From NCBI GenBank assembly GCA_965261225.1, contig OZ253456.1:264431-328430 (forward strand): 64,000 nt of DNA, written 5' to 3'. The DNA comes from Dehalococcoidia bacterium. GTDB lineage: Bacteria; Chloroflexota; Dehalococcoidia; Bin125. Numbering within the stretch: the first letter of the stretch is position 1; each line of letters opens with the position of its first letter. Below are positions 989 to 20,511 of the stretch, one piece after another. Below the pieces are notes generated by a model. The model did no database searches. It had not been told where the DNA came from and saw only the letters and a list, made by a program, of their open reading frames with translations. The translations under genes were made by a program, and so were the position numbers.

Positions 989-3799
989 CTAACGGTCCGA
1001 GGTCAGCCCGGTGAGTGGGAACTCAACCGACTCGACGCCAGATGCTCCGGGGAGCGAGGTTGTGGTCCAGTTCTCGGGATCCGAGACGAGCGCGTAGCGC
1101 ATGTGAACGTCTGTGTCGTTGGCCCCACTGACATTCACCGTGACCGTCGCCTCAGTCTGGGTGATGGAATCCTCATCCACTTCGACCGAGACCACGACAG
1201 GAGGCGAGGACCAGCCCGAATACTGGCGGTTGTTGTGCAGCGGGTAGGCGAGCAGACTGTCCCTGATGCTCGTCGAGGTGGTGTTGGAGCTGACCCAGAT
1301 AACGTGGCCGTCCGACCAGAATCCCTTGATTGTGCCGTGACCCTGAGACAACGTGACGTCGTGCACGTGGATATGGTGTGCGTTCGCCGGACCGTCCGAC
1401 AGATCAAGCGCAAACAGTTTCTTAGTGGAGCACTGCGTCGCCAGGTACAGCAGGCTCCGCGACGTATCGTGCCAGATGCCTACGACCTGATCGTGCTGAC
1501 AGATCGAGCTCGGTACAACGATGTCTTTGCCGAGCTCGCGCTCCCCCGTGGATGCGTTGTACGCGAACAAGGTGTCGCGCCCCGAGCCCGCAGCCCAGAA
1601 CGTCGAGCCGTCGCCGAAGAACGCCTCGGCCTCGGGAAGCTGCTTGCGGTCTACTCCACCTGGGTAACCCGGAGGTCGCATGTCCCCACTTGTTTGCACG
1701 ACCTCACTTGAGAGAAACGCGCCGTCCGATTTTCGGTATGGGACGAACCCGACTTCTTCGGCATGATTGATGTGTTCGATGTGATTCGCGGTCACCGTCC
1801 AGATGCGTGTGGCGTCGCCCCAGAGGCCGCCGTCCACGTCGGTGTAAATAGCCGTCGGGACACTGGTCGAGTCATTGTGCGCCGTGATGTCATCTTCGGC
1901 TTGTGCCGCGCCGGACGCCAGATCGTATGCGAAGAGTTTGTTGTCGGTCTCGTGCACAACCCAGATCGTGTCGCCGTCCGACCAGACGCCATGGGCGGAA
2001 TTGTCGACGAGCGTTCCCGAAGTCAGCTCGATATCGCGCAGCGCCGCGCAGCGATCGGTGGCGTAGTAGACGGCGCGGACTCGGTAGTGGTAGGTCGTGT
2101 CGGATTCGACGGTGTTGTCGAGGAAGCTGGTCGAGTCCGCGTCGACGCAGGTCAGGAAGGCGAAGGCGCCGTCGACGGATCGCTCGATCTCGTACTGGTA
2201 AACGTTCTGTCGCAGGCCGTTGGTGAGCGGCGTCGGCGGTGGTCCCCAACTGAGCCGCGTGCCGTCGGTCTCGTCGGCACGGGCGAAGCTCGTCGGACCG
2301 GCGCCGCCGTCGGCCACGGTGACCATCACATCGGGCAGTGTGATGACGTCATACTCAACCGAACTGCCGCCGATCGTATGGGCCAACTGGAGGCCGATGT
2401 CCTCGGTCACGGAGTCCGCGGCTGCTCTGACAATCACGTACTGCGGCGTCTCCCAGTTCGACGGGGTAATGGTGAGCTCTGTGGCGCTCAGGGTCACTAC
2501 TCCAGGCGAGGTGGAAATGGAAATAGTCACCGTGCCCGAGGGTTCGGAAATGATCGCAGCCTGGTAGTAGCCCTGGCCACCCTCGGGAACCGTGATATCG
2601 ATGGGGTTGATGATCCCACCGGTGTCGTCGTCGATCACGGTCGTCACGACATCGATGGATGTCCCCACATATAGGGGGCCGGAACCGGAGGCGCCTGAGA
2701 TTGTGATCGTCACCTCGTCGTTGGCGCCGTCGTCGTCACTACTGGCGCTGACGATCACCGTCTCACCCGTCGCCCAGTTCGACTCTTCGAACCTGATCCG
2801 CGCCGGGTTGACCGTCACATCGCCGCCGGCGTCGATCCGCATTTCGACATAGGGGGTATCGCTCGGTGCTACCGCCCTTGGCTTGCTGCAGAGCGAGATA
2901 GTGAACGTAGCTGTCTCACTCTCGGGAATGTAGAGACGCTCGGGATAGATCCTGACGCACGCCCCCGTCGCTTCGTCGTCCGCAATGTCCACTCTCACTG
3001 AAGGTCCTGAAAGGCCGTTGTAGCTGGCTTCGCTGCTGGAGCTCGCGAAGCTGACGCTGATCGTGGGGCGCTGATCCCACGGATTTCGCACCTGATCGTC
3101 CGTGGCGGTCACAGTGAACTGTTGCGGCGTGCTCCAATCGGTGCTGGTAAAGGTCAGCGTCGACGGGTCGATTGTGGCCCACTGGGTGTGGCTGACGGTC
3201 CCGCTGACCGTCACATCCGCTGTCGGCGGAGCTTCCAGCCGCACATCAATTGTCCCTGTGTGGCCCTCGGCGAAGCGCATCCGAGCCGGCGACGTGCTGA
3301 TCCCAGGGTCGTCGTCGTCTTCGATTGCCACCCTCACGGTCTGCACGTCCACGCTCAGGTACTCTGACGCGCTGCCAATCTTGATCGCGTGGGTGATGGT
3401 GGCTATGCCGTCGTTCGCATCCGCGTCATCCACGCCGTTGACGGTGATCTCCTGCGAACCGCGCCACCTCGTGGGCGTGAACTTGACCTCCGTCGGGTGG
3501 ACCGTGACGCCCTCACCGGCGCTGATGACGACTGTCATGTCAGCGCTCGGCGCGCTTCGTAGGTAGAGCCAATACCTGCCGCTGCTGCCTTCGTCGATCG
3601 TCAGATTAGTCGGGGTGACCAGCACCTCAACCTGGGTCGACTGAAAGGGTGCAGGGCCATCACTGGTGGATATGTCCGAGGACGCCGTGTCGAGGCCCTG
3701 GCCATGCACGGACCAGGTACCGGACAGCATGGCGCCGAGCAGGGCTGCGCCGGCGACTCCCACAAGCAGCCGCGTCGCGCGGGCGCTGCTCACTTCCAT
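989..3799 (-). CDS. Large secreted surface protein: Sec signal peptide, Ig/cadherin-like beta-sandwich repeats, W-S-D-G-x-x-I-W-V beta-propeller-like repeats, FN3. Terminated by TAG at a position that is Glu in paralogous repeats.
   Basis: ORF 989..3907; likely start at Met37 (MEVSSARATRLLVGVAGAALLGAMLSGTWSVHG signal peptide). Repeats FWSDGHVIWVSS / WSDGDTIWVVHETDNKLFAYDL are shared with the 12302..18955 protein. It ends ..FPLTGLTSDR*, whereas paralogous repeats read LISDREYEVQASY. Confidence 0.7.
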   Translation of the reverse strand: MEVSSARATRLLVGVAGAALLGAMLSGTWSVHGQGLDTASSDISTSDGPAPFQSTQVEVLVTPTNLTIDEGSSGRYWLYLRSAPSADMTVVISAGEGVTVHPTEVKFTPTRWRGSQEITVNGVDDADANDGIATITHAIKIGSASEYLSVDVQTVRVAIEDDDDPGISTSPARMRFAEGHTGTIDVRLEAPPTADVTVSGTVSHTQWATIDPSTLTFTSTDWSTPQQFTVTATDDQVRNPWDQRPTISVSFASSSSEASYNGLSGPSVRVDIADDEATGACVRIYPERLYIPESETATFTISLCSKPRAVAPSDTPYVEMRIDAGGDVTVNPARIRFEESNWATGETVIVSASSDDDGANDEVTITISGASGSGPLYVGTSIDVVTTVIDDDTGGIINPIDITVPEGGQGYYQAAIISEPSGTVTISISTSPGVVTLSATELTITPSNWETPQYVIVRAAADSVTEDIGLQLAHTIGGSSVEYDVITLPDVMVTVADGGAGPTSFARADETDGTRLSWGPPPTPLTNGLRQNVYQYEIERSVDGAFAFLTCVDADSTSFLDNTVESDTTYHYRVRAVYYATDRCAALRDIELTSGTLVDNSAHGVWSDGDTIWVVHETDNKLFAYDLASGAAQAEDDITAHNDSTSVPTAIYTDVDGGLWGDATRIWTVTANHIEHINHAEEVGFVPYRKSDGAFLSSEVVQTSGDMRPPGYPGGVDRKQLPEAEAFFGDGSTFWAAGSGRDTLFAYNASTGERELGKDIVVPSSICQHDQVVGIWHDTSRSLLYLATQCSTKKLFALDLSDGPANAHHIHVHDVTLSQGHGTIKGFWSDGHVIWVSSNTTSTSIRDSLLAYPLHNNRQYSGWSSPPVVVSVEVDEDSITQTEATVTVNVSGANDTDVHMRYALVSDPENWTTTSLPGASGVESVEFPLTGLTSDR

Positions 3800-3854
3800 A
3801 ACGCCCCGGCACATCAGCCGTGCCCATCGCGAGAGTTGACGCATCATTCGCCGG

Positions 3855-3890
3855 TCTCCACAAGCTCCACAATCTCCACAAGCTCCACAA
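3855..3890. repeat. Four tandem 9-bp direct repeats CTCCACAA(G/T) in the upstream region of the surface-protein gene.
   Basis: ctccacaag ctccacaat ctccacaag ctccacaat, read directly; it lies 56-91 nt upstream of the proposed ATG at 3797-3799. Confidence 0.8.
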
Positions 3891-5054: not shown

Positions 5055-5070
5055 CTTGTAGTCGATGACT

Positions 5071-5877
5071 TCATTGATAATGTCCTGCGTGTCGCTTGGC
5101 GAGGTCCGCGAGCAACGCGGGAAAGTTGCCCTCGCGAAGGCGCCGGTTGAACAGCAAGTGACGCATTGGCGCCTTCGGAATCGGCTTGGTCAGGGATGGG
5201 CGTTGCAGCAGCGGAGCGGCCACGCTCTCGGTGACCGATTCGATGATGGACCTGCTGATCACATCCAGTTTGCAAACAACCGCAATCCGAGCCTCTGATT
5301 CCTCTTCGAGCTCGAACATCAAGTAGAAGACGTCACAGGCGTTCACGAGACTGATGATGATCACGTCCCGCGGGTCGGGAATCTCGTTCTCAAAGATGAC
5401 CTTGCTGATCCGCGTACGGACGAAATCGACCACCGTGCCGTCGCGGGAGTTCAGGTACTCGTCCAACTGGCCCAGATTGGGCGCCAGCGTCCAAAACTCG
5501 CCGGCATGGTGCTTCAGGATCTCGTTATCAACCAGACGCTCCAGCGTCTGGTCGATAATCATTTCCGTATGCGGCGCGAGCCGCTCAATCCAATACTGGA
5601 CGTTGTGTTGACCAGGCTCGCTGGCTATCTCGCGCTGGATCAAGTCCAGGGAGGCGTCGTCCGTCTCTGTGTCGTCCAGCAGGATCAACGAGTCAAGGTC
5701 CGAGTCTATGCGTGACATGAGCGACAGTTCCGCGAGCGCCGCGCCGGCGATCACGCAGTTCAGGGTCCAACCCGGTACCGGTTGAAAGAACCCGCTCTCT
5801 TCGTTAAGGAGCATCAAAATCAGATCCTCAGTTAAGCTGAGCGTCTTGGTAATCGTGTCTCCGGTGGCGGTTGTCAT
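5071..5877 (-). CDS. GPP34-family (Golgi phosphoprotein 3-like) protein with a C-terminal extension that may be a fused P450 N-terminal remnant.
   Basis: LSLTEDLILMLLNEESGFF..PGWTLNCVIAGAALAELSLM is typical of bacterial GPP34 proteins; start taken at MTTATGD. Confidence 0.5.
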   Translation of the reverse strand: MTTATGDTITKTLSLTEDLILMLLNEESGFFQPVPGWTLNCVIAGAALAELSLMSRIDSDLDSLILLDDTETDDASLDLIQREIASEPGQHNVQYWIERLAPHTEMIIDQTLERLVDNEILKHHAGEFWTLAPNLGQLDEYLNSRDGTVVDFVRTRISKVIFENEIPDPRDVIIISLVNACDVFYLMFELEEESEARIAVVCKLDVISRSIIESVTESVAAPLLQRPSLTKPIPKAPMRHLLFNRRLREGNFPALLADLAKRHAGHYQ

Positions 5878-6195
5878 TGATTCTTCCGGCCGACTTCGCA
5901 CTCTAGATAGTCGTTTGGTATAGCAAACTCCAGAGCAGTCCAACTGGGAACGAATCGTCCATTGGCCTTGGAAGTTATGTGTCGAGAACGCCGTAGCAGA
6001 CTGGTGCGAACCAAGTGGATGGGTGTTTGGAAGCCGGCGTTCCGCACCAAGTCACGCGAACTGCTGGCTGGATATCCGCTCGAGCAACTCAACTACATCG
6101 CGTTGCGACACAAGAGTGTGTAGCCGCGAAAATCCACCGACCTGCTCGCGGGTCCGCGACAATCTACGCTTTCATACACCGAGGAAGATTCTGTC

Positions 6196-6819
6196 ATGCA
6201 GTTTCGGCAGCGCGACACGGAAGCCATCGCTCGCGGAGAGCAAACCCTAACCTTCCGGCGTTGGCGCCGACCGCAAGCTCGATCGGGCGGCCGCTACCGC
6301 GTTGGCCCGTACGTCATTGAGGTCACGTCAGTTAAGCAGATCGATCCGTCGCAGATTTCGACCGAGGATGCACGCGCAGCCGGTCACGACTCGCCCGAGG
6401 ACGCCCTCGCTGCGATTCGTCGAAATCAACGCAAGTCGGGCGACACGAACGCACCGCTCTATCGGGTCGCGTTCCGCTGTTTGGGAGAACAAGCCGATCC
6501 GCGCAGCATCCTGGCCGCCGACTCCGGCCTCAAGTCGGACGAACTGAGCGCCTTCACCGAGCGCCTCGCAAAGATGGACGCACGCGCCCAACGCGGACCG
6601 TGGACGCGGGCCGCGCTAGAGGCAATCTCTTCCGATTCGGGTCGTCGTGCCGCCGAACTGGCCGCCGCACAAGGCCGCGAGACCGCGAAGTTCAAGGCCG
6701 ACGTGCGCAAGCTTAAAGCGCTCGGCCTCACGATCAGCCTCGAGGTTGGATACGAACTCTCACCGAGAGGACGCGTCGTCCTCGACGCGCTACAAGCAGC
6801 CGCGCCGGCGACCGATTAG
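6196..6819 (+). CDS. ASCH-domain-like hypothetical protein.
   Basis: IARGEQTLTFRRWRR resembles the ASCH GxKxxExR motif; plausible codon usage; 207 aa. Confidence 0.45.
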   Translation: MQFRQRDTEAIARGEQTLTFRRWRRPQARSGGRYRVGPYVIEVTSVKQIDPSQISTEDARAAGHDSPEDALAAIRRNQRKSGDTNAPLYRVAFRCLGEQADPRSILAADSGLKSDELSAFTERLAKMDARAQRGPWTRAALEAISSDSGRRAAELAAAQGRETAKFKADVRKLKALGLTISLEVGYELSPRGRVVLDALQAAAPATD

Positions 6820-7223
6820 GTCTGACGCGACTCGACGATCTCGCGAGCGGCGCTGACGACACGCGGGACGATCGCGGCGACTTCATCTTCGTCGAGCGCG
6901 TTGGCAACGGACGGGTAACCCGCACGCTCGATCATCGACCGCAGACGCCCGCGCTCGAAGACGTTCAACGTCCAATCGAGGGAGTCGCCTGCAGCCGTCA
7001 GGTCGAGCATGTGACGCTCGTCGTCTGCCTCGGGTCCGTAGTGGTAGTGAGGCGCGACGCGGAAGCAATCGAAGCGAAGCAGCTCCGTGTCATGTCCCTC
7101 GACATCGGCGCGGACTTCGATGCAAAGCCCCTCATCACCCGCGATGTCGTCGCGGTAGCGCATGGCAAAGGCGATCGCGCCTGCGTCAATTTGTGCCTGA
7201 TCTGCGGCAAGGTCTTCAGTCAT
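6816..7223 (-). CDS. Hypothetical acidic protein.
   Basis: 135-aa ORF with coding-like composition; no recognisable motif. Confidence 0.35.
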   Translation of the reverse strand: MTEDLAADQAQIDAGAIAFAMRYRDDIAGDEGLCIEVRADVEGHDTELLRFDCFRVAPHYHYGPEADDERHMLDLTAAGDSLDWTLNVFERGRLRSMIERAGYPSVANALDEDEVAAIVPRVVSAAREIVESRQT

Positions 7224-7578
7224 AATTCGTCTCCTGGCCCTGCCGCGTCTTCAGATCGGCGCTCACGGCAGGATGCAACCCTGCGCACCCAACTCCGGAG
7301 GACGGTGTGCTGTCCTCCGAGCCAAGGGCGCGGGAAATCAAGCTAGCACAGCCGACGAAGGCGCATCGCGTTAGGTCTGATCTACGGCAGACGCGTTCAC
7401 GCCTCGCTAGATTGACCGCACGACTCTAGGAGGAATAACCGTTGGAGGATCGGCACGGGAATGCTCTGATCAACCCAGTTCCTTGATTCCCCGCTCGAGG
7501 GGGAAGTTGCCGAAGCTGAAGAGGGTGTCTCAGAGGCAACCCGACCTCCATCTCCGTCATACCCGCGCTCCGTCGCGG

Positions 7579-7702
7579 GTATCTCGCCGAGTGCCGCACG
7601 GACCCTCGAACCTGAGCAACAGCGACAGCTTCGATCGCACAGGAGGCTCCCGGCTTCCGTGCCGAGCACAGCGAGATACCCGCGGCGGAGCGCGGGTATG
7701 AC
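7579..7702. repeat. Nested palindromic element: two ~32-bp inverted copies (cgtcatacccgcgctccgtcgcgggtatctcg / cgagatacccgcggcggagcgcgggtatgacg), each itself a GC hairpin, separated by ~60 bp.
   Basis: Read directly. It lies between the BVMO 3' end and the upstream end of the 6816..7223 gene. Confidence 0.7.
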
Positions 7703-7776
7703 GAATTTCGTTCTACTGAGACAGCCTCTAAAGGGGGTCCCCGATCGGCCTCGAACGCCAGTGACTCGGAAGATTC

Positions 7777-9408
7777 CTAAGTCAACTGGAATCCCTCGTA
7801 GCCGTTCGCCGCGACCTCCTCGAGACGCTGCCGATAGCGCGGCGCTCCGCCCGGGTAGATCTGGTAGCGGATGGTGTCGTGACCGTCGACGTTGGAGTTG
7901 TAGCCGGTGAACCAGCTCTTGACCTTGCTCATCAGCTGGAACTGGTACATCTCCTGGACGTGCTGCAGCCACTCCAACTCGGCCGCTTCGCGTGATTCGA
8001 CGCGGCGATAGCCGTGCTCGCGCATGTAACAGACCAGGTCCGTGATCCAGTCGACGGACGTCTCGATGCCGCGTGGGAAGTTGGTCGAGACGGAGCCGCC
8101 CTGCGGCCCGGTCAGCATGAGCAGGTTGGGAAAACCCGAGGTCTGCATTCCGAGGAACGTGTCGGGGCCGTCGGACCACTTGTCACGCAGCGCGACACCG
8201 CCGGCGCCGGTGAAGTTGATCCGGTCGAACGCTCCGGTGATCGCATCGAAGCCGGTTGCGTAGATGATCAGGTCAAACTCGAATTCCTGATACGAGGTCT
8301 GGACGCCGCTGGGCGTGATCCGCTCGATCGGCGTCTCGTTGATGTCGATCAGGTGCACGTTGTCGCGGTTGTAGGCCTCGAAGTAGTGCGTTTCCAGCGG
8401 CACGCGACGAGTGCCGAAGCCATGGTCTTTGGGGATCAGTTTCTCGGCGGTCAGCGGGTCGTGGACGCGCTCGCGGATCTTGTTGGCGATGAATTCGGAG
8501 TACTCGGCGTTGGCTTCCTCATTGATGCCGACATCGATGAAGTTACTGAACCAGACGCTGAATCCGGGAGAAGCGTAGATCTGCTCCCACAGTGCGAAGC
8601 GCTCCTCCTCGGGCACATCGCGGAACTTGCGCGGATCGGGACCGTGGATGAACCCTCCAGGGGTCTGTTTGCAGAGTTCGAAGATTTCGTCGTAGGAAGC
8701 CTTGATCTCGGCCATCGTGGCCTCGTCGATGGGCGCGTTGTGCAGCGGAGCGCACCAGTTGGGACGGCGCTGGAACACGGTCAGATCGCCGACCTTGTCG
8801 GCAATCTCCGAGATCACCTGGACGCCAGTCGCGCCCGTGCCAATCACGGCGACACGCTTGTTCGCCAGCTCGACCGGATCGTGCGGCCAGTAGTACGTGT
8901 GCCAGGCCTCGCCTTCGAAGCTCTCGACGCCTTCAATGCGAGGCAGGGTGGCGGCCGAGAGCATGCCGATCGCGGTGAGCAGGAAGCGGCCCGTGATCTC
9001 GCGGCCGTCCTCCAGATACACAGTCCAGAAGCTCTGGTCCTCGTCGAACGACGCGCCTGCAACCTTGCAGCCGAACTGCATGTGGCGGCGCAGATCGAAC
9101 TTGTCGACCACGTGATTGAGGTAGCGCAGGGTTTCGGGCTGCCCGGCGAAGTGCTCGCTCCACTCCCACTCTTCGAGCAGCTCCTTGGAGAATGAGTAGC
9201 CGTAGGTGTAACTCTCCGAGTCGAAGCGGGCGCCCGGGTAACGATTCCAGTACCAGGTCCCGCCCGGTCCGTCCGCGGCTTCGAGCACGGTGGCGTCGAT
9301 GCCCAGTTCTTGCAGCCGATACATCTGGTAGATGCCGGCAACGCCGGCGCCAATGATGATCGCTTCGTGCTGGGGTTGGTCCTGATCCGTCATGGCGTGC
9401 TCCTTCAT
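7777..9408 (-). CDS. Baeyer-Villiger (cyclohexanone-type) flavin monooxygenase.
   Basis: GAGVAGIY FAD-binding motif, BVMO fingerprint FEGEAWHTYYWP, second Rossmann GTGATGVQ; 543 aa; TAG stop. Confidence 0.85.
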   Translation of the reverse strand: MKEHAMTDQDQPQHEAIIIGAGVAGIYQMYRLQELGIDATVLEAADGPGGTWYWNRYPGARFDSESYTYGYSFSKELLEEWEWSEHFAGQPETLRYLNHVVDKFDLRRHMQFGCKVAGASFDEDQSFWTVYLEDGREITGRFLLTAIGMLSAATLPRIEGVESFEGEAWHTYYWPHDPVELANKRVAVIGTGATGVQVISEIADKVGDLTVFQRRPNWCAPLHNAPIDEATMAEIKASYDEIFELCKQTPGGFIHGPDPRKFRDVPEEERFALWEQIYASPGFSVWFSNFIDVGINEEANAEYSEFIANKIRERVHDPLTAEKLIPKDHGFGTRRVPLETHYFEAYNRDNVHLIDINETPIERITPSGVQTSYQEFEFDLIIYATGFDAITGAFDRINFTGAGGVALRDKWSDGPDTFLGMQTSGFPNLLMLTGPQGGSVSTNFPRGIETSVDWITDLVCYMREHGYRRVESREAAELEWLQHVQEMYQFQLMSKVKSWFTGYNSNVDGHDTIRYQIYPGGAPRYRQRLEEVAANGYEGFQLT

Positions 9409-9529
9409 TCCGGCTTGGCCTGAGGCTAGTCCTTCGGCAAGTCAGTCAGCAACAGGCGGCATGGGCAAGTCGCTACGGGATGAGAGCATCCCGACGCGCT
9501 ATGTTGTCGATCCGGACCGGCGGTGACCT

Positions 9530-10309
9530 GTGAGCATTGAACTGGCGACGATCCATACCTTAGTCGAAGGTGACGGTGAGCGGACCTTCCTCTTGCTCAA
9601 CGGGGCGGGCCAGAGTCTGCGTAGTTGGGACTACGTCGCGCCGGGCTTGCTCGATATCGGCCGCATCATCCGCTTCGATGTGCCGGGCGTCGGCGAGAGC
9701 CCGCCGCCCGACCAGCCATACTCGTTCGAGGAACTCGGGTATGCCGCGCTGGAACTAGCTGAGCCGCACCGCGTCGGCTCACTGATAGTCGTGGGCCACG
9801 CCTGGGGCACCCGAGCCGCGCAAGTGATCGCGCGTGACCATTCGCCCGCAGCAGTGGTGATCGGCTCCGGCGGCGGCAAGTTCCCGCCGCTCGCCAGCGC
9901 AGCGGACGTCCAAACGGCGACCGTCGGCGCCGATGACGGGGATACAGAGGCGTGGAACCAGCGCTTCGAGCGCACACACTGCGCGCCCGGCTTCAGTGCT
10001 CGCAATCCCGAACGAGCCGACTGGCTCTTCCAACTCGTGCGCACCACGCCGACCGAGCGCGCCGTCGTCTCAGGCGCGATTGAGCGAACCCCGCTCGAGT
10101 CCTACTGGGGTCGCTTCGACTGCCCAACACTGCTCCTCTACGGCGCCGACGACCTGGTCGGCCATCCCGACAACGCCGAGGACCTGCACCGCGCACTGCC
10201 AAACTCGAAACTGGTCTACATCGAGCAGGCAGGCCACTTCGTCATCGTGGAACAAGGAGAACGCTTCGCCCGGGAGATTTGCGGCTGGATCGAAGAGCAG
10301 GGGTTCTGA
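9530..10309 (+). CDS. Alpha/beta-fold hydrolase with Ala at the nucleophile position (G-H-A-W-G).
   Basis: HGxP-like N-terminus, VVGHAWGT in place of Sm-x-Nu-x-Sm, C-terminal GHF catalytic His. GTG start; TGA stop. Confidence 0.7.
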   Translation: MSIELATIHTLVEGDGERTFLLLNGAGQSLRSWDYVAPGLLDIGRIIRFDVPGVGESPPPDQPYSFEELGYAALELAEPHRVGSLIVVGHAWGTRAAQVIARDHSPAAVVIGSGGGKFPPLASAADVQTATVGADDGDTEAWNQRFERTHCAPGFSARNPERADWLFQLVRTTPTERAVVSGAIERTPLESYWGRFDCPTLLLYGADDLVGHPDNAEDLHRALPNSKLVYIEQAGHFVIVEQGERFAREICGWIEEQGF

Positions 10310-10700
10310 GCTCAGACCCAGTGCTCAAGCGCCCGATGCGGGGCTTCGAAGAGAACTATGACGAGCGCTAGCCCACCTGCTCGGAAGATGTCGAACCCGT
10401 CCATCTGGCCGTGCCGGCGAATCGGTTCGCAGGTCAGTAGGTAGCGGACGGGAAAGCAGGACAAGCTGGACCGTACTGCGAATATTCGTTTGAGAACTGG
10501 AACCATCAGCACGGACTCAACGTCTCCGGATCAACGCGATTCCACAGCGGTTCGAGTCCCACAGAGAGGACGCCAGCACCCTCCGCGCTACGCTCTGGAT
10601 TCGGAGTTAGGTACGATCTAGAGGCCAAACGGCGGAACCGGTAATTTGCTACAGCAGCCAACAGTTGCCATTGGGACAACGGAATGGTGGGGTTGGGCCT

Positions 10701-11900
10701 ATGAGACGTGCGTTGTCGTTTGGAACCGAATCCGCGTTGGCCGCTGCCGCGCCGGCAATGTTGGTGCGCGCGTTGCTTGCCCTGGTCGTCGGCTGCGTGG
10801 CGCTTGTCGTTGCCTGCACCGACGATGACACAGCGACCGACATGGCTCCGGAGCTCCGGGAGCAACAGGCGGCAGTAGAGATCGAACAGGAGCAGGAGCG
10901 TTCGAGCGAGCGTGGCGAGGCTGCGCCAGCGTCGGCGGCAGAAACAACCCACGAAACCCAGTCCAACGAGATTCAAGACAGCGCCGAACCAGCAGATTCC
11001 GAGACGTCCGAGAAGCCCGAGACCGAGTCCGACGACGCGGCTGCCTCCCAATCCGCGTCAGACAATCCTCCTGCCGAATCGGGCGACCAGACCGCAACCG
11101 AGCAGACCGCAACCGAGCAGGCAGCAGCCGTCGAATCGGAGCCGGAGCCGTCCGTAGCCCAGGCCCAGTCTCAGCAAGCGCCAGTCGAAGCCGAAACTCA
11201 GTCCGAACCGGAACCAGCTCAGCAAGCGCAAGACGCAGACAACAACGTACGAGAAGAGGCTGAAGAGACTCACGTTGCGCAACCACCCGCGACAGACCCG
11301 GATCCAGACCCAGACGTAGACACGGAAGAGGAGCAGACCTCTCGGGTGGCGCCGACGCCCGTCGGCTCGGGTGACAATGTCGGTGGATCCAGCGCCATGA
11401 CCGAGGACGAACCCGCCGGCCAGCAACCGCTCGATGCTTCGCCGCAGAAGGGTGCGGGTGAGACGGACGTCGTAACAGTCAGCACCGCCAATACCTACAC
11501 CTGGCAGGACGGCGACTACACCAGGACAGTCACGCACCAGGCGGACCTGACTGCCACCGCGCAGGCCGACGGCGGAAGCGAGATCGGTCCAAGGCAAGCC
11601 GGCGGCGCGCAGAGCGACCCGAATCCGGTCTTCCAGTCCGACACCGGCGAGACGATGACCCTGCCCGGCGGCGTGCTGCTGGTGTTGGACGCAGAGTGGA
11701 ACCAGGCGAGGATCGATCAGTTCTTCAAGGACAACAACGTGGACCGCAGTCTGGTGCAGGAGCGGACATTCACGACGAACGCCTACTTCATCGAAACCGA
11801 GCCCGGCTTCCCCTCGCTCAACCTGGCAAACGAGCTGGTCGCGCAGGAGGGCGTCGTGTTCTCCAGTCCCAACTGGCAAACTGAGGTCGAGCTCCAGTGA
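10701..11900 (+). CDS. Secreted lipoprotein with a long acidic low-complexity region and a C-terminal globular domain.
   Basis: Signal peptide with lipobox LVVAC; E/Q/A/T/S/D-rich repeats (ATEQTATEQ); the stop overlaps the GTG start of the next gene (GTGA). Confidence 0.55.
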   Translation: MRRALSFGTESALAAAAPAMLVRALLALVVGCVALVVACTDDDTATDMAPELREQQAAVEIEQEQERSSERGEAAPASAAETTHETQSNEIQDSAEPADSETSEKPETESDDAAASQSASDNPPAESGDQTATEQTATEQAAAVESEPEPSVAQAQSQQAPVEAETQSEPEPAQQAQDADNNVREEAEETHVAQPPATDPDPDPDVDTEEEQTSRVAPTPVGSGDNVGGSSAMTEDEPAGQQPLDASPQKGAGETDVVTVSTANTYTWQDGDYTRTVTHQADLTATAQADGGSEIGPRQAGGAQSDPNPVFQSDTGETMTLPGGVLLVLDAEWNQARIDQFFKDNNVDRSLVQERTFTTNAYFIETEPGFPSLNLANELVAQEGVVFSSPNWQTEVELQ

Positions 11901-12301
11901 GAGTCCGATTTCTGCCGGTGTCCCCGGCGGTGTTCCTGCCGCTGTTCCTGGCGATCTGCGCCGTGCTCTGCTTCTCGCTGTTCACGAGCGTGATCCTGGC
12001 CCAAGCGCCCGGTGAACCGACCATCGACTCGGCAACGTCCGGCACGACGTCGATCTCGATCGCGTGGACCGCGCCAGGCGACATCGGAGGCTCTGCAATC
12101 ATCGCCTACGACCTGCGCTACATCCGCACCGACGCAGACGAGGACGGCGCAAGCAATTGGACCGAAAAACAAGACATCTGGACCTCGCGGAATCTCAGCT
12201 ACACGCTCTCCGGCCTCAGCAGGGACACGGCGTTCGACTTCCAGGTCCGCGCTGTCAATTCAGACAGCACAACGAGCGACGGTCCCTGGTCGGCCACCTA
12301 G
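11897..12301 (+). CDS. Signal peptide plus single FN3 domain. This is the probable N-terminal module of the giant S8 protease gene, cut off by an in-frame TAG at 12299-12301.
   Basis: MRVRFLPVSPAVFLPLFLAICAVLCFSL.. then an FN3 domain (ISIAWTAPGD..YDLRYIRTD..FQVRAVNSD). Same frame as 12302..18955. Confidence 0.6.
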   Translation: MRVRFLPVSPAVFLPLFLAICAVLCFSLFTSVILAQAPGEPTIDSATSGTTSISIAWTAPGDIGGSAIIAYDLRYIRTDADEDGASNWTEKQDIWTSRNLSYTLSGLSRDTAFDFQVRAVNSDSTTSDGPWSAT

Positions 12302-15300
12302 GGAGCGTCAACCACCGATCATGGAAACAGCCAGTCGGCGGCGACGACGCTGTCATTGGGCTCCTCGCTGGAAGGCAGCATCGACCCCGCGGATGACGAA
12401 GACTACTTCAAAATCGTGGCGCCATCGAACACCGACCTCTGGGTCTATACCAGCGGTGCACTCGACACCACAGGAGAACTGTCGAGGTCTGGAGGCTCAG
12501 TGCTGGCCAGGAACTATGACGGGCGTCTCGTTGACCACCCGCTGGGCTTCTCGATGCGATACCGCCTCAGCGGCGGAACCTTCTACGTCAAGGTCACCAG
12601 CCACGCAGGGAAGTACACCGGCGCCTACACGATTCATGCCCAACAAGCGCTTAGCCTCGGAGGCAGCTTCGCCAACCCAACGGAGATCAATCTTGACTCC
12701 GCGGCCGCAGGAAGCCTCTACCCGATCGCCGAATCTGAGACGGAAATCGATACGAACGGAGTCTATAGGTACTACACCATAATCGACATTGACGTCTTCA
12801 CCTTCGAACTACTCGTCCCCACCGAGGTCTGGATCCTCGTCGCGGGGAGATTCGACAGCACACTCACTCTCTTCAATTCTGATCAACAAGTACTCGCAAG
12901 CAACGACAACGGAGGCTGGACGTACAACTCGACTGCGTCAATGATCAGACGGAGCCTGAGTCGTGGCTCGTACTATTTGAAAGTTTCGGGAGACAACGGA
13001 GACGACTTCGGGCCATACGTCCTGTATCTGAAAACTGTCACTGAACCAGGAGGGTCCCTGGCTGACGCGACTCGGCTTACCCTCAACGTCCCCCAGACCG
13101 GTAATTTGGCTTCCAATACGGACCAAGAATATTTCAGCTTCACACTTGATGACGAGACCTACGCGAGCGTCTATGTCGCATCGTTCGACGGAGCGTTGCC
13201 CGTCGCTGTAAGTGGCCTGGACGCTATGACGGAGAGCTTTGAGATCACCCGGGCCGACTACTCCGACGCCGGTGAGCGTGCCGAAAGCTATTACAAATGG
13301 GGTAAGCTCCCCGCTGATACTTATAATATTTCTACTTCAACGACCAACAGTGGAGGCGGGAAGTACCTGCTCCACGTGCGCACCTCCAGGTACGCCGAAG
13401 TGGTTGACAACTGCACGACGTCGCTGACGACGACCACGAGCGACCCGTGGTACGGATGCCAGTGGCACCTCGATAACACCAGTCAGTTCGCCAATGGCGC
13501 CGAACAGGACATCAACGTCCAGGAACTGTGGGACGACTCCGACCCGTCCACCATGGGCGCGGGCATTCGTGTGGCAGTGGTCGACGACGGGATGCACTTC
13601 GAGCACGAGGACCTGACTGACAACGCCCTGACGTCGCAGAATCGTACCTATCATCGGTCACGCAGTAGCATCTACAATCCGGCCGACAGCCACGGGACTG
13701 CGGTGGCAAGCATCATCGCCGGCCGAGACAACTCATCTGGAGTTCGCGGTGTAGCCCCCAGAGCCTCCATCTTCGGTATCAAAATCCTCTCAAATGTCCC
13801 ATTCACTAACGACACTGAATCCGGCGCGATGGACCCTGAAATGTCCAACGCCGCCATATTCAGCAACAGCTGGGGACCTGTCACAAGAGGTAGACTCTTT
13901 CGACCGTCGGACGCCTGGGAACAGGCCGTAACGGGAGGAGTCAATGATGGGTTCGGCAAGAATGGAATCCTCTATGTATTTTCCGGAGGAAACGGTCATT
14001 TGGATGGTGACTACAGCAATCTGAATGGCTTTGCAAACTATTACGGCGTCGTCGCTGTGTGCGCAGTCAACTATGCCGACAAGCGCAGTTGGTATTCGGA
14101 ACTGGGGTCCAACCTCTGGATCTGCGCTCCATCCAACTCCCCCCGCGAAATTCCGGAGCTCCCTGCCATCACGACCGCCGACAACGAAGACCGATACCGA
14201 AACAGCTTCGGCGGCACCTCGGCGGCTGCCCCTATCGTCTCCGGGGTCGCCGCTCTCATACGTGCTGCCGATCGAGGCACACAGCCGACACTGAGCTGGC
14301 GCGATGTCAAGCTGATCCTCGCCAACTCGGCGCGCAAGAACGACGCGACCGATTCCGGCTGGCGAGATGGAGCGCTGAAATACGGTTCCACAACTGAGCG
14401 GTACTCGTTCAACCACGAGTACGGCTTCGGCATGGTCGACGCCGGCGCAGCCGTCGCACTGGCAAAGACCTGGACCAACCTTCCCGACATGCGGCAGATG
14501 ACCGGAACCTCAACCAATCAAGCTCAGACGATCCCCGACGCACCGAGTAGTGTCACGACAGGTAGAACGATTGAGAGCAGACTGACCATCGATGACTACG
14601 TGGAGTTCATCGAGTTCGTCCAGATCGACATCAACTTCCAGCACACCCACTTCGGACATCTCAGCGTGGAGTTAGTCTCGCCGTCGGGCAAACGGTCCTC
14701 GCTCAGCGTGCGCCGGGACGTCTACGTGGCCAACCCAGTTAATGGCCCCTTCCGATTTGGCTCGGCCCGACACCTCGGCGAAAACTCGGCCGGGACCTGG
14801 AAGCTGAGCGTGACCGATCACCGACCAAACGACACCGGAATCTTGCATTCCTGGAGCATCACCGTCTACGGACACGGCATCACGCCGAATGAGCCCGATA
14901 TAGATTCGACCACGGCAGGCGATCAGACAATCACCGTTGCCTGGAAAGCGCCGGACGACCACGGCACTTCCGATATCACCAAGTACGATCTTCGCTACAT
15001 TCGCTCCGACGCTTCCAACAAGTCCGACACCCGTTGGACCCTTCACACGGACATCACCACCGATACCTACGAAATTATGAGCCTGGAAGCCGGGGTGTAC
15101 TACGACATCCAGATGCGGGCGCACAACGATGGCGGAGCGGGTGTCTGGTCCGAGACCGAACAAGGCAACACGGACGCGGTCGCGCGCGCGACGCTCAATA
15201 CGCCGAGCGTCACGGCTCGTGCGGCTGAACTGCTCGTCACCTGGACGCCGCCGGGGACCGGACAGGTCGGGATCAGCAGATACGACGTGCGCTACATCCT

Positions 15301-18300
15301 CAGCAGCGCCACTGCCGAGGAGAAAGAAGTTGGCACGAATTGGATGGAAGAGGTGGCCTGGAGAACCGGCGGCGGCGACTTGAAGTACATCATCGATAAC
15401 CTCATGAACGGCGCCAGCTACGACGTGCAAGTGCGTGCGACCAACGCCCTGGGGACTAGCGATTGGTCGGCGACCCGAACCGGAGCGCCGCGCGTCGCCA
15501 ACCAGGCGCCCGCATTCCTTATGTCTGAAACGGGCACGCGCAGCATTGACGAGAACACGCCGGCCGGTCAAAGAATCGGCGCGGCTGTACGCGCTACCGA
15601 CTCCGACGACCGCCAATTGACCTACGACCTCGCGGGTATCGATGCCGCCCACTTTGAGATCAACAAGGACACGGGACAACTTCAGACATTGGACGAGTTC
15701 GATTTCGAGAACAGCAGGAGGACATACTCAGTCGACGTCGAGGTCTCGGACAACAAGGATGCCAACGGTGACGACGATCCCAGCGTCGACGCCACGCAGC
15801 CGGTCACGATCACGGTCGAGAACGTCAACGAGGCGCCGACGGTCTCGGGCGGGCAGGATTTCGACTTCCGAGAGGATCGCGGACGGTGGGACGTGGGCAA
15901 CTACACCGCGATCGACCCCGAGATGGACATGATCACCTGGTCGCTGTCCGGTCCTGACCGCGGCGACTTCGAGATCGACCTAGACGGCAATCTCAGTTTC
16001 CGCCAAGCGCCGGACGCCGATCGGCCCGCCGACCAAGACCGCGACAACAAGTATGAAGTCAACGTGGTCGCTTCCGACGGCAATCTCCGAGGGGAGCTCG
16101 ATGTCACGGTGAATGTCGAAGAGGTCGATGAAGCACCAGAGATTACCGGCAGGGGCGACATCGATTATGCGGAAAACAGCATCGGCGTTGTCGAGAGGTA
16201 CTCGGCCACCGATCCAGAAGGCGGGACCGTCATCTGGTCGCTGCCAACGAGCGATCAAGGCACGTTCACTTTGACGAACGGCCAACTTCGCTTCAGGTCG
16301 TCCCCCAACCACGAGGATCGCCCCAGCTATTCGGTCATCGTCCGCGCATCCGACGGCAGCCTCACGCAATCCTTGCCGATCACAATCAACATCACGGATA
16401 TCGATGAAACTGAGACCCTGACCCTCTCATCCGACCAGCCGGTTGAAAACGTGCGCCTGACCGCGACGTTAACCGAGCTGGATGAGGTCACCAACGAGCG
16501 ATGGCAATGGGCTCGCTCAACAAGTCGGAGCAGCGGCTATTCCGACATTCCCAGCGCGACCTTCAGCGATTACATGCCGGACAGCGATGATGTCGGCGAC
16601 TACCTGCGAATAACCCTCACGTACAATGACCCCCACCGGGCCGACCGAACACTAACTGCGACCACCAGTGGGCGCGTTCTGGCAGCTCCGGTGAACAACG
16701 AGCCACCAACGTTCGCGCCCGATGAAACCGGCCAGCGCAACGTCCAGGAGAACTCGGGACATCGAACAGCCATCGGCGTCGCTGTAGCGGCCACCGATCC
16801 GGAGAGTGACCGACTCGTCTACAGCATCAATGACACACACGGGAACAAGTTCGAAATCGACCGAAACAGCGGACAACTCCGAGTTGGTTCGGCCGCCAAC
16901 CTCGACCACGAGCCAATGAGCACTTATCCGGTAACTGTTTCTGTCTCCGACCCATTCAATCCCGCCGTGACGCAACGGGTGACCATAACCATCGAGGACG
17001 TGAACGAGCGTCCCGTTGCGATAGACGACATCGCAACCACAAACGAAGATGAGACGATATCTATCGATGTGGTTAATAACGTTGACGGCAGAGACTCAGA
17101 TCCCGAAAATAAAGATTTATCCGTCGAACTCACACGCAATCCGGCGAGCGGCAACGCTGAAGTCGAGGCGGATCAAACGGTCAAGTACACTCCGAAACCC
17201 AATTTCGATTGTTCAGACAGTTTCCAATACCGAGTGTTCGACGGAGTATTGAGATCTGCTCACTCTGCCACTGTAGTGGTCAACATCAACCCTCGTAACG
17301 ACCCCCCAGAGTTCGTTGGCGGCCCGTCAACTCGCCAAGTAGCCAAGAACGCCGAACCTGGCAGTAAGGTTGGTCAGCCGGTCGTTGCCTCAGACATTGA
17401 CATCGACGCCGCCAAAGAGTGCAACGACGATGAACTGACTTATCGCCTGAGGGGTTCGAACTTCTTTGAGATCGACGACAACACGGGTCAGATAGTGGTC
17501 AGCACTTTGGCGACCTTTGACCCAACAGTGACGCCCACTTACTTCGTCGAAGTGATCGCCGGAGACACGTCATTCGAGGAGGCGAGAACGGTCGTCGCCA
17601 TCAACGTCGTTGACCAGATCACCACGACAACAATCACCACCGGCGGTGGCGGCGGCGGCGGACCGCCGCCCATTCCGATCCCATCCGACGAGGAGTTCGA
17701 CTGGAATGTGACTCGCGACATTGAGTCGCTGGATCGCGACAACGACCTGCCCACCGGGCTGTGGTCGAACGGCGCGGTGCTCTGGGTTGTGGAGAATTCG
17801 GCGACCGGCGCCGACTTGCTCTTCGCCTACGACCTCAACACGGGCGAGCGTCTTGAAGAGCACGAGTTCGAACTCGAGCGGCGCAACCGCTTCTCGCACG
17901 GCATCTGGTCCGACGGCGAGCTCGTCTGGATCGCCGACAGTGGTCAGGACAAGCTCTTCGCTTACAACCTTGCAACAGGCGAGCGCGACGAAGACCGCGA
18001 CCTCGAACTCGACGAGCGCAACCGCGACCCGCGCGAAATCTGGTCCAATGGCGAGTCGATGCTGGTGCTCGATAGCGTCAAGGACGCGTTGTTCGTCTAC
18101 GATCTTGAATCGGGCCGGTTGCTCGCCGAGTTCCCGCTGGACAAGCTCAACAAGAGCCCGCGCGGGATCTGGTCGGACGGCTTCACGATCTGGGTCTCGG
18201 ACGACGGCGCCAAGCGTATCTTCGCCTATCGCATCGAAGGCGAGACGTTCAAACGCTATGAGGACCAGGAGTTCACCTTCCGCTCGCTGCTCAAGGCCGG

Positions 18301-18955
18301 CAACGGCGACGCGCGTGGGATCTGGTCCGACGGCGACGTAGTCTTCGTCGCCGACGAGCAGGACGATCAGGTCTACACGTACAACATGCCTGACGCGATT
18401 GACGCGCGGCTCGCCTCGCTCACGCTGAGCGGCGTCGAGTTCGGCGAGTTCTCGGCCAGGCAGACGGAGTATGCGGCCGTCGTCGAGGCCAGCCTGCCGT
18501 TTACCACAGTGGAAGCGGAGGCTGCGCAGAGCAAGGCCGGCATCGAGATCATGCCCGCCGATGCTGACGGCGACCCGACCAACGGACATCAGGCAGCGCT
18601 GATCGATGGTCTCGACATCACGGTTGCGGTGACCTCCGAAGATGGCTCCCGGAGACTGGTGTACACGGTCGGCATCAGTAACTGTCTGAGCGGACTCAGC
18701 GAGACGCGCCTGAACTCAGTCCAGTTCGTGGGCGGCGGCGTGGGCGAGTTGGTCGACTGTGCCCGGAGTCTCGGCGTCGATGCGCTGTATCACTACCGCG
18801 ACGGCGTCTGGGTCGCCTTCTTCCTCGATGCGCCGGAGTTCCTCAGTCACGCCTTCCGCAATCGCTTCGCCGAGGGCGTCCCGGCCGGCGAAGTACTGAT
18901 CGCCAAGCGAGAGTCCATCCGGATGGCCACGCCTGCCGTGGAGAGTCCCGGCTAG
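12302..18955 (+). CDS. Giant subtilisin/kexin-like S8 serine protease: 3-4 PPC-like domains, S8 catalytic domain, proprotein-convertase P-domain, 2-3 FN3, ~7 cadherin-like repeats, Gly/Pro linker, 6-7 WSDG beta-propeller repeats, C-terminal beta-sandwich domain.
   Basis: D (VAVVDDGM), H (HGTAVASIIAG), S (GGTSAAAPIVSGVAAL) catalytic triad. P-domain: DYVEFIEFVQIDINFQHTHFGHLSVELVSPSGKRS. DxDxDGxxD-type cadherin repeats. GIWSDGxxVWV repeats. The ORF tool's TTG start at 12356 is not credible; the frame is open from 12302. Confidence 0.75.
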   Translation, partial: GASTTDHGNSQSAATTLSLGSSLEGSIDPADDEDYFKIVAPSNTDLWVYTSGALDTTGELSRSGGSVLARNYDGRLVDHPLGFSMRYRLSGGTFYVKVTSHAGKYTGAYTIHAQQALSLGGSFANPTEINLDSAAAGSLYPIAESETEIDTNGVYRYYTIIDIDVFTFELLVPTEVWILVAGRFDSTLTLFNSDQQVLASNDNGGWTYNSTASMIRRSLSRGSYYLKVSGDNGDDFGPYVLYLKTVTEPGGSLADATRLTLNVPQTGNLASNTDQEYFSFTLDDETYASVYVASFDGALPVAVSGLDAMTESFEITRADYSDAGERAESYYKWGKLPADTYNISTSTTNSGGGKYLLHVRTSRYAEVVDNCTTSLTTTTSDPWYGCQWHLDNTSQFANGAEQDINVQELWDDSDPSTMGAGIRVAVVDDGMHFEHEDLTDNALTSQNRTYHRSRSSIYNPADSHGTAVASIIAGRDNSSGVRGVAPRASIFGIKILSNVPFTNDTESGAMDPEMSNAAIFSNSWGPVTRGRLFRPSDAWEQAVTGGVNDGFGKNGILYVFSGGNGHLDGDYSNLNGFANYYGVVAVCAVNYADKRSWYSELGSNLWICAPSNSPREIPELPAITTADNEDRYRNSFGGTSAAAPIVSGVAALIRAADRGTQPTLSWRDVKLILANSARKNDATDSGWRDGALKYGSTTERYSFNHEYGFGMVDAGAAVALAKTWTNLPDMRQMTGTSTNQAQTIPDAPSSVTTGRTIESRLTIDDYVEFIEFVQIDINFQHTHFGHLSVELVSPSGKRSSLSVRRDVYVANPVNGPFRFGSARHLGENSAGTWKLSVTDHRPNDTGILHSWSITVYGHGITPNEPDIDSTTAGDQTITVAWKAPDDHGTSDITKYDLRYIRSDASNKSDTRWTLHTDITTDTYEIMSLEAGVYYDIQMRAHNDGGAGVWSETEQGNTDAVARATLNTPSVTARAAELLVTWTPPGTGQVGISRYDVRYILSSATAEEKEVGTNWMEEVAWRTGGGDLKYIIDNLMNGASYDVQVRATNALGTSDWSATRTGAPRVANQAPAFLMSETGTRSIDENTPAGQRIGAAVRATDSDDRQLTYDLAGIDAAHFEINKDTGQLQTLDEFDFENSRRTYSVDVEVSDNKDANGDDDPSVDATQPVTITVENVNEAPTVSGGQDFDFREDRGRWDVGNYTAIDPEMDMITWSLSGPDRGDFEIDLDGNLSFRQAPDADRPADQDRDNKYEVNVVASDGNLRGELDVTVNVEEVDEAPEITGRGDIDYAENSIGVVERYSATDPEGGTVIWSLPTSDQGTFTLTNGQLRFRSSPNHEDRPSYSVIVRASDGSLTQSLPITINITDIDETETLTLSSDQPVENVRLTATLTELDEVTNERWQWARSTSRSSGYSDIPSATFSDYMPDSDDVGDYLRITLTYNDPHRADRTLTATTSGRVLAAPVNNEPPTFAPDETGQRNVQENSGHRTAIGVAVAATDPESDRLVYSINDTHGNKFEIDRNSGQLRVGSAANLDHEPMSTYPVTVSVSDPFNPAVTQRVTITIEDVNERPVAIDDIATTNEDETISIDVVNNVDGRDSDPENKDLSVELTRNPASGNAEVEADQTVKYTPKPNFDCSDSFQYRVFDGVLRSAHSATVVVNINPRNDPPEFVGGPSTRQVAKNAEPGSKVGQPVVASDIDIDAAKECNDDELTYRLRGSNFFEIDDNTGQIVVSTLATFDPTVTPTYFVEVIAGDTSFEEARTVVAINVVDQITTTTITTGGGGGGGPPPIPIPSDEEFDWNVTRDIESLDRDNDLPTGLWSNGAVLWVVENSATGADLLFAYDLNTGERLEEHEFELERRNRFSHGIWSDGELVWIADSGQDKLFAYNLATGERDEDRDLELDERNRDPREIWSNGESMLVLDSVKDALFVYDLESGRLLAEFPLDKLNKSPRGIWSDGFTIWVSDDGAKRIFAYRIEGETFKRYEDQEFTFRSLLKAGNGDARGIWSDGDVVFVADEQDDQVYTYNMPDAIDARLASLTLSGVEFGEFSARQTEYAAVVEASLPFTTVEAEAAQSKAGIEIMPADADGDPTNGHQAALIDGLDITVAVTSEDGSRRLVYTVGISNCLSGLSETRLNSVQFVGGGVGELVDCARSLGVDALYHYRDGVWVAFFLDAPEFLSHAFRNRFAEGVPAGEVLIAKRESIRMATPAVESPG

Positions 18956-20511
18956 GGGCGGAATGTCGGGCCGGAGCCGGGACCGAGCTGCGTCTTGATC
19001 ACGCCCTGCGCCATCTCGACGAAGTCGCACAGACGCGCGCGCGTCTCCCGAGGGTCGATTAGATCGAGCCCGCTCGCCTCCGCCGTGCGGAACGGCGAGG
19101 AGATGCGCTGGAAGGTCTCTTCCAGTTCCAGCCGCTTCGCCTCCGGGTCGGGCGCGGATTCGATCACGCGCCGGAACGCGGCGCTGGTGCCGCCCTCGAT
19201 ATGCATCGATCCCCAATGGCCCGAGACCCAGGCGTAGCGTCGATACAGATGCGGGCCGGGACGGAACTGGAGACTCCCCGCCAGCCCATACGACTGCCGG
19301 CAGATGAACGAAATCCAGGGCATCTGGCTGTTGACGATCGAATAGACCAGTCGCGACCCCGCCCGCTCGATGCCCTGCTCCTCCGACATCGGTCCGACGA
19401 GGAATCCCGGGTCGTCCATCAGCACGACCATCGGAATGTGGAAGGTGTCGCAGAGTTGGACCAGTCGCGCCGACTTCTCGGCGGCGGCGACATCCATCGA
19501 ACCGCCACGCTGATAGGGGTTGTTGGCCATGACTCCGACCGGATAGCCGTGGGCACGCGCCAGACCGATAATCCGCGACGTCCCGTAATCCGGGGCGATC
19601 TCGAAGAACGAACCCTCGTCCAGCACGCTCTCCAGGATCACGCGTGTGTTGTAGGGTCGCCGCTTGCTGCGCGGAATCAGCGTGAGCAGGCGTTCATCGC
19701 GGCGGTTGGGATCGTCGCTGGTGTCGCCGCGCGGCGGCATCTCCCAGACGTTGTCGGGCAGGTAGCTGAGGAACTGCTTGACCTGGGCGATGGCGTCCGG
19801 CTCGTTCTCGGCCACATTGTCGACAACTCCGCTGATCCGCGTGTGGACGGCGTATCCGCCCAGCTCTTCCTTGTCGATGTCGAGTCCGAGGGCCGCTTTG
19901 ACAACCGGCGGACCACCGGGGAACACCTGACCTGTGCCCTTGGCGATCACGCTGAAATGGCTGAGGCAGGGAATTGGCGCGAGACCGCCGGCCGCGGGGC
20001 CGAGGACTGCGGAGGCCACGGGCGCGATGTTGAGGATCTTGCAGTAGTCCCCGAAAAACGCGCCATCGGGAATGTAGGTCCGGCCCAGGTCGGAGAACTC
20101 CGTCACGCTGCCGCCTGCGCCGTCGATCAGGTTGATCGTCGGTAACCGCAACTCGGTTGGGATTGGGTGACCGTGTCCGATGTCGACGCCGCCGTCGTCG
20201 GTGCGAGCGGATCCGCCACGAACCGTAAAGTCCTGCCCGCGGATATAGACGCGACGACCGTTGACCTTGGCCAGGCCGCGCACGCTGCTGACGGGCGTGA
20301 AGTCGGTCAGCTCGCCCTCTTCGTTGTACGTCGCGCGGCCCTGAAGCTTGCCCATCTCGTCGAAGCTGCCCGGGTCGACCAACAGCTCGAGTCGCTCGCG
20401 CACCGTGAGTTTGCCTTGCCGATGCTGCCGCTCGATCCCCGACGGACCGCCCATGGCCTCTTTCATTGCATGGCGACGCGCCAGCTCGTCGATCTCTTGC
20501 TGCCAGCTCAT
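18952..20511 (-). CDS. Acyl-CoA carboxylase carboxyltransferase (beta) subunit (propionyl/methylmalonyl-CoA carboxyltransferase family).
   Basis: N- and C-terminal carboxyltransferase halves (..RGQDFTVRGGSA.., ..VAENEPDAIAQVKQFLSYLP..); ~520 aa. Confidence 0.85.
   Translation of the reverse strand: MSWQQEIDELARRHAMKEAMGGPSGIERQHRQGKLTVRERLELLVDPGSFDEMGKLQGRATYNEEGELTDFTPVSSVRGLAKVNGRRVYIRGQDFTVRGGSARTDDGGVDIGHGHPIPTELRLPTINLIDGAGGSVTEFSDLGRTYIPDGAFFGDYCKILNIAPVASAVLGPAAGGLAPIPCLSHFSVIAKGTGQVFPGGPPVVKAALGLDIDKEELGGYAVHTRISGVVDNVAENEPDAIAQVKQFLSYLPDNVWEMPPRGDTSDDPNRRDERLLTLIPRSKRRPYNTRVILESVLDEGSFFEIAPDYGTSRIIGLARAHGYPVGVMANNPYQRGGSMDVAAAEKSARLVQLCDTFHIPMVVLMDDPGFLVGPMSEEQGIERAGSRLVYSIVNSQMPWISFICRQSYGLAGSLQFRPGPHLYRRYAWVSGHWGSMHIEGGTSAAFRRVIESAPDPEAKRLELEETFQRISSPFRTAEASGLDLIDPRETRARLCDFVEMAQGVIKTQLGPGSGPTFRP

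Follow-up and report, generated by a model that had tools for sequence, protein, structure and literature searches.

Organisation of the locus

The window (the whole stretch of DNA that was analysed, 64,000 nucleotides; 62% G+C) carries on its forward strand the gene of a giant S8 protease, which is interrupted by an in-frame TAG (Table 1). The stop stands in the context GCC ACC TAG GGA as codon 135 of 2353. It closes a short ORF of 134 codons (11897–12298), and the frame behind it is open to the end of the gene; the initial annotation had placed the ORF 11897..12301 and the frame from 12302 in one phase, and this was confirmed. GC3 is of the coding type in both segments (0.81 in the short ORF, 0.74 in the long frame). 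The signal peptide of the short ORF reaches a peak Kyte-Doolittle value of 2.9 over 15 residues; homologs of the protease carry equivalent signal peptides.

Table 1: Features of the interrupted protease gene and of its surroundings (positions in the window).
Feature	Position	Strand	Remarks
Second in-frame TAG	989..991	-	in FN3-like repeat of giant adhesin gene (3925 to beyond window start)
GPP34 (Golgi phosphoprotein 3-like) gene	5071–5943	-	
Upstream ORF	10665..11900	+	~400 aa; without Pfam match
GTG start and signal peptide	11897..12007	+	37 residues (MRVRFLPVSPAVFLPLFLAICAVLCFSLFTSVILAQA), AQA cleavage motif; from translation
N-terminal FN3 domain	12008..12298	+	Pfam fn3, E=1.3e-9, residues 38–125
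In-frame TAG	12299..12301	+	in FN3-PPC linker; nonsense substitution of ancestral Tyr codon
Remainder of protease gene	12302..18952	+	2217 codons, all open; same frame as short ORF
S8 catalytic domain	~13556–14431	+	Peptidase_S8, E=1.3e-38, model 1–288/288
P-domain	~14612–14863	+	P_proprotein, E=2.3e-21
Natural TAG terminator of protease	18953..18955	+	L004 ortholog ends in TAG, same C-terminus
Type III-like restriction-modification pair	32399–36882	+	N6_N4 DNA methylase, 635 aa; ResIII helicase-nuclease, 915 aa
Leucine-rich-repeat (LRR) protein	48119–50611	-	830 aa
IS630-type DDE_3 transposase	51449–52573	-	with HTH domains; apparently intact, TAG-ended

The remainder of the gene encodes a full S8 model followed by P_proprotein, the arrangement of the S8 peptidases with a P-domain. 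The catalytic Asp, His and Ser motifs (VVDDG, HGTAVAS and GGTSAAAP) are intact in the translation. The other modules are three PPC-like domains (weak PPC match), two FN3 domains, cadherin and cadherin-like domains, WSDG-type repeats and a cadherin-like beta sandwich; no match to a propeptide (I9) was reported in the Pfam search of the protease.

The upstream ORF is conserved; in its product a long stretch of low complexity is acidic, and the C-terminal ~100 aa form a conserved part. Its TGA overlaps the GTG start of the protease (GTGA), and the two are for this reason probably translationally coupled. On a second contig (L001, see below) a gene of 399 aa was called for this ORF, and at the ortholog locus L002 an upstream ORF (383 aa) is arranged alike, with the identical 4-nt overlap. 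The product could be a coupled partner of the protease (chaperone, propeptide-like protein or inhibitor). At the other end of the gene, the tetranucleotide CTAG at 18952–18955 holds the stops of two convergent genes, TAG of the protease (+) and TAG of a carboxyl transferase (-), which overlap by 2 nt, tail to tail.

Neighbourhood and host association

GPP34, the LRR protein and the giant S8/FN3/cadherin family co-occur in the window. GPP34 and LRR proteins belong to the "eukaryote-like" features for which enrichment in sponge symbionts has been reported (PMC11706023), and their presence supports a sponge-symbiont origin; the bacterium is likely sponge-associated. FN3, cadherin and LRR surface proteins of "eukaryote-like" character have likewise been described in sponge symbionts (PMC3909097, PMC11706023). 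The two ORFs of the restriction-modification pair (Table 1) overlap by ~170 nt in different frames.

Ancestral state of the junction

Homologs: The fused N-terminus was used as protein query; the search returned only proteins of less than 1000 aa. Many of these homologs carry signal peptide, FN3, PPC-like modules and S8 domain on one chain, and the closest of them run ...DGPWSATKEGSTTDHGG... uninterrupted over the junction. In the alignment (35–66% identity) the FN3/PPC junction was continuous in 12 of 12 homologs, the only signal peptide was N-terminal, and a two-gene design was found in none; the column of the TAG is variable and is occupied by K, Y, S, T, N, V or F. Fragmentary orthologs were considered as evidence of decay and set aside, since the set of <1000-aa proteins may be a selection effect; a survey of genome loci was used instead (see below).

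Orthologs: Locus L004 (CAXXUV010000008.1, a Dehalococcoidia MAG) has ~95% DNA identity to window 5821–21995 and ~99% identity over the first 1000 codons of the protease gene. Its protease is one unbroken ORF, 2347 codons long if counted from the corresponding GTG and 2351 if counted from the stop before it; the junction there is GCC ACC TAC GGA. The more distant orthologs have TAT (L005) and AAA (L002) as junction codon. From these codons, obtained by the ortholog comparison that the initial annotation had proposed, the TAG of the window is a single C-to-G transversion at 12301, by which Tyr135 (TAC) became TAG. A stop at this codon was found in no relative except contig L001, which is identical to the window here; every other one examined has a sense codon. 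A scan of JGI metagenomes for either allele of the junction gave 0 matches. The earlier view of the junction as an FN3-to-PPC linker split within one ancestral gene is borne out by the 12 continuous homologs together with L004.

Age of the lesion and selection

No further stop or frameshift was found downstream of the TAG across the 2217 codons. The remainder is collinear with L004, the indels (8 and 3 codons) being all multiples of 3, and dN/dS against L004 downstream of the TAG is 0.32. With L005 as outgroup, 22 synonymous and 21 nonsynonymous substitutions were counted on the window branch and 30 and 20 on the L004 branch, counts of low power; relaxed selection on the window branch was not detected, the substitutions being too few to separate a young pseudogene from a still-selected gene.

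In the TAG-bearing segment dS against L004 is only ~0.01–0.03, which indicates that the nonsense mutation is very recent, and the lack of other damage in the gene also points to a young lesion. The undamaged frame would fit a very recent lesion and would fit as well a gene still under selection, e.g., through leaky expression.

Divergence along the gene is strongly mosaic (window 11897–18955 against L004 7881–14936): dS is ~0.01–0.03 over codons 1–995, 0.21 over codons 995–1635 and 0.47 over the C-terminal 730 codons; the DNA flanking the protease gene is ~92–97% identical. This pattern suggests recombination or segment exchange within the giant protease gene.

The second TAG in the giant adhesin gene

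The presence of a TAG in a second giant gene of the window, also recorded in the initial annotation, was verified (Table 1). The adhesin gene has >1300 codons; the interrupted repeat reads ...LTGLTSDR*YNVEAS... (asterisk, stop), and the frame downstream of the TAG is coding-like (GC3 0.80). Two adhesin orthologs (71–72% identity) have Glu at this place, P0121 in ...SDREYNVEAS... and P0123 in ...ADREYTVEAS..., so that the TAG is a Glu-to-stop change, most simply GAG to TAG. By this comparison it is an independent lesion of the same kind as that of the protease. Calculated from codon usage, 46–49% of the possible nonsense substitutions in the protease gene and 57–59% of those in the adhesin gene give TAG; p for both lesions being TAG is ~0.28 under mutation alone, and two TAGs are thus not more than chance.

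Lesions in the protease family

A scan of species-representative genomes, other than that of the window, gave 80 family loci (L004–L083), nearly all in Dehalococcoidia MAGs; the matches include sponge-derived bins (SB0661, APA) and Candidatus Poriferisodalis. The family is widespread and redundant, with several copies per genome. A stop was counted as in-gene if tblastn homology continued past it. The 80 loci contained 11 such stops: TAG, 6 (L019, for Tyr; L034; L048, twice; L081, twice); TAA, 3 (L021, for Ser; L047, for Glu; L051, for Ser); TGA, 2 (L029, for Trp; L041, for Gly). The split TAG/TAA/TGA of 55/27/18% matches the mutational expectation from codon usage (~49/27/24%), i.e., the family lesions occur in proportions expected from mutation alone. 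The idea that it is TAG specifically which hits these genes finds no support in these counts nor in the p value given above.

Frameshifts were found in ~16 of the 80 loci; copies with frameshifts and/or in-frame stops amount to ~22 of 80, roughly a quarter, the positions being scattered, and L021, L048 and L051 have more than one lesion each. Apart from 1 nt inserted within the S8 domain of L017 (GGGCCC-TGG changed to GGGCCCTTGG), the proteins of loci L016 and L017, which belong to two different MAGs, are 100% identical. An enrichment of nonsense codons in FN3 domains was considered and rejected (6 of 12 after the full survey); FN3 has many Tyr and Trp codons, which a single substitution can turn into a stop.

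TAG as a terminator and signals for read-through

TAG terminates 7 of the 12 Pfam-supported genes of the window and is the commonest genuine terminator there. For isopropylmalate/isocitrate dehydrogenase the Pfam model (2–348/348) ends 4 residues before its TAG; the other genes ended by TAG are those of the carboxyl transferase, the LRR protein, the DDE transposase, a solute-binding protein, an FMO-like oxidoreductase and the protease. Many intact members of the protease family, L004 included, also end in TAG.

The base at +4 of the TAG at 12299–12301 is G. No stimulatory RNA structure was found 3' of it (fold of 12290–12410, z=-0.82 against shuffles), and the sequence shown downstream of the junction codon is the same in L004, where this codon is TAC. 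The 64-kb window contains no tRNA gene, and no suppressor tRNA was found in it.

Nature of the lesion

The data are best explained by a recent nonsense mutation that inactivated a giant secreted subtilase, the gene being now a young pseudogene or a segregating loss-of-function allele; a probability of about 0.8 was assigned to this reading. The two ORFs are one ancestral gene, whose protein runs from signal peptide and FN3 through three PPC-like domains, S8 and P-domain to FN3, cadherins and repeats. The C-to-G change at 12301 made Tyr135 a TAG, and translation would terminate after 134 residues; a small secreted FN3 fragment would be the only product released, and 2217 codons, the catalytic domain included, would be cut off from start codon and signal peptide. 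Such a lesion is indicated by the sense codons in the close orthologs, by the continuity of the 12 homologs and by the loss, for the catalytic body, of its start and its only signal peptide. Further lesions downstream and relaxed selection, which a pseudogene may show, were not found, in a comparison of low power. Termination in vivo is presumed to be efficient, with no functional protease made. Of the two possibilities raised in the initial annotation, fresh pseudogenes and metered amber read-through, the first is supported by the sense codons in the orthologs at the protease site and by Glu in those of the adhesin.

The second, that programmed amber read-through meters the expression of the protease, is not supported by the sequence comparisons: the stop is not conserved, TAG is a normal terminator in the window, the lesions of the family are mutational in their proportions and without specificity for one type of stop, and neither a stimulatory structure nor a favourable +4 base is present.

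Leakiness of a less specific kind, the main rival of the pseudogene reading, was weighed separately. Basal near-cognate read-through of the UAG (Gln, Tyr, Lys or similar inserted) would give a little full-length, exported and active protease, as in a "pseudo-pseudogene", and residual expression of this kind could be tolerated or even selected. In proteogenomic work on Salmonella enterica, many nonsense pseudogenes were translated at low level; 68.6% of the read-through cases were at UAG, and C was over-represented at +4 (Feng et al. 2022 NAR, PMC9122581). At the present locus the TAG falls in a linker column that tolerates many residues, and the downstream frame is pristine, with no relaxed selection seen; both would suit such a product. 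Against it, the stop is absent from every relative examined, G stands at +4 where C is favoured in the Salmonella set, a stimulatory structure is missing, and other family members have TAA, TGA and frameshift lesions at rates expected from mutation. Long untranslated mRNA is, moreover, exposed to Rho-dependent polarity where Rho is present, and 6.6 kb would be so exposed here. Read-through of this kind is a generic low-level property of ribosomes and not a designed device. This explanation is considered unlikely; the leaky product, if any, would be incidental and not a means of metering.

Reliability of the base call

A sequencing or assembly error, with C as the true base at 12301 and an intact gene, was judged still less probable. 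The window and L004 differ here by one base only, and several low-coverage contigs of the same kind of dataset carry plainly broken orthologs (L002, 2.34x; L003, 8x); both points speak for an error. MAGs of the same naming style were obtained from PacBio HiFi reads by metaMDBG assembly. Errors of long-read consensus are mostly indels, of which there is none in the protease gene over 7 kb, and apart from the TAG the frame of 2217 codons is kept intact in the window assembly. Two contigs on record encode the exact truncated product of 134 residues; the longest measures 3.65 Mb.

Contig L001, the second of them (17.3 kb, 3x coverage), matches the window without a difference over 3500–16764, the TAG included. 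A divergence of ~10%, accompanied by many indels, is confined to the giant adhesin gene (L001 1–1560 against window 1938–3500) and may reflect either strain-level hypervariability of repeats or an effect of low-coverage assembly. L001 is probably a different adhesin haplotype that bears the identical TAG, and the TAG is then probably real; its occurrence on this contig makes a random consensus error unlikely. As evolutionary comparator L001 was dropped; being identical to the window over 3500–16764, it supports the base call only.

A methylation or error motif shared by the two TAGs was looked for and rejected: the first lies in CCTAGG, the second in GTTAGT, and there is no common motif. CCTAGG occurs 3 times against 5.8 expected. 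In the whole window CTAG is under-represented (48 against 89 +/- 8 expected from dinucleotide-preserving shuffles).

Possible restart downstream of the TAG

A restart behind the stop would turn the two ORFs into separate functional genes, one for a 134-aa FN3 protein and one for a protease begun at TTG 12356 or GTG 12500; this is regarded as very improbable. The in-frame starts after the TAG are TTG 12356 (the first), GTG 12416, GTG 12500 and ATG 12554, and GTG 12500 has GGAGG 4 nt upstream. The large part is left without a signal peptide, as the initial annotation had stated: no signal-like hydrophobic segment follows the TAG within 150 residues, the peak Kyte-Doolittle value being 0.79 against 2.9 for the true signal peptide, and no restart product would carry a signal peptide. 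A promoter-like site was not found between 10300 and 12900.

Over codons 136–555, which include all four candidate starts, the window differs from L004 by ~10 substitutions only, and the L004 protein is identical through the residues around GTG 12500 (...RSGGSVLARNY...). On this comparison the candidate starts are apparently part of coding sequence that was inherited. If translation resumed at GTG 12500, the first PPC-like domain would be truncated, and a two-gene design is seen in no ortholog. The outcome of a restart would be a shortened protease that lacks a leader.

Possible decoding of TAG as an amino acid

That TAG is read as an amino acid, whether by an amber suppressor tRNA, as pyrrolysine or in a reassigned code, with normal translation of the two giant genes, is suggested by the fact that both have TAG and neither TGA nor TAA; it is as improbable as the restart, given that TAG is not avoided but is the most frequent terminator of the well-supported window genes and stops housekeeping enzymes at the end of the Pfam model, that the two TAGs stand for different residues (Tyr and Glu) and coincide in type at a probability that mutation alone accounts for, that no tRNA gene lies in the window, and that relatives have in-frame TGA and TAA as well.

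Comparison with known systems

"Internal stop" pseudogenes: The protease gene agrees with these in the single base change against an intact ortholog, in the ancestral sense codon, in the separation of the body from start and export signal and in the lesions of every type scattered among paralogs and orthologs. It differs from a typical case in that secondary decay is not yet visible; the lesion would be young and may still be polymorphic.

Salmonella "pseudo-pseudogenes" (PMC9122581): Common to both are a UAG lesion in an otherwise intact gene and, in principle, the possibility of near-cognate read-through. TAG is a rare terminator in Salmonella (9.3%) and the commonest in the window; at +4, C is over-represented there and G stands here.

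Programmed read-through and recoding: Decoding of UAG as pyrrolysine and the A1 read-through protein of phage Q-beta are examples of programmed events at stop codons. The likeness of the protease gene to these is one of surface only, namely a stop in frame with a long open stretch behind it. In contrast to them, the stop of the window is not conserved, has no stimulatory element and no specificity of stop type in the family, and TAG is a normal terminator.

Kexin/proprotein-convertase-like S8 subtilases: These share with the protease the order S8, then P_proprotein; the window gene also has FN3 and cadherin modules. It is far larger (~2350 aa), with an N-terminal FN3 domain, three PPC-like domains and no reported I9 match. 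The giant S8/FN3/cadherin family appears to be uncharacterised.

Implications

The lesion of the interrupted protease is a further case of a well-known type and brings no new mechanism. For annotation, both ORFs should be joined as one pseudogene with an internal stop, in place of a small FN3 protein and a leaderless 2199-aa protease. The suggestion of alternative amber decoding in Chloroflexota thereby falls away as a false lead.

It is conceivable, at low probability, that giant surface proteases and adhesins are switched off strain by strain via point lesions, young UAG alleles keeping a trickle of protein; if true, costly surface proteins exposed to the host would vary between on, low and off within the population, under pressure from host or phage. 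Ordinary mutations often disrupt the giant S8/FN3/cadherin family in the surveyed Dehalococcoidia MAGs, which is relevant to strain-level variation of surface proteins.
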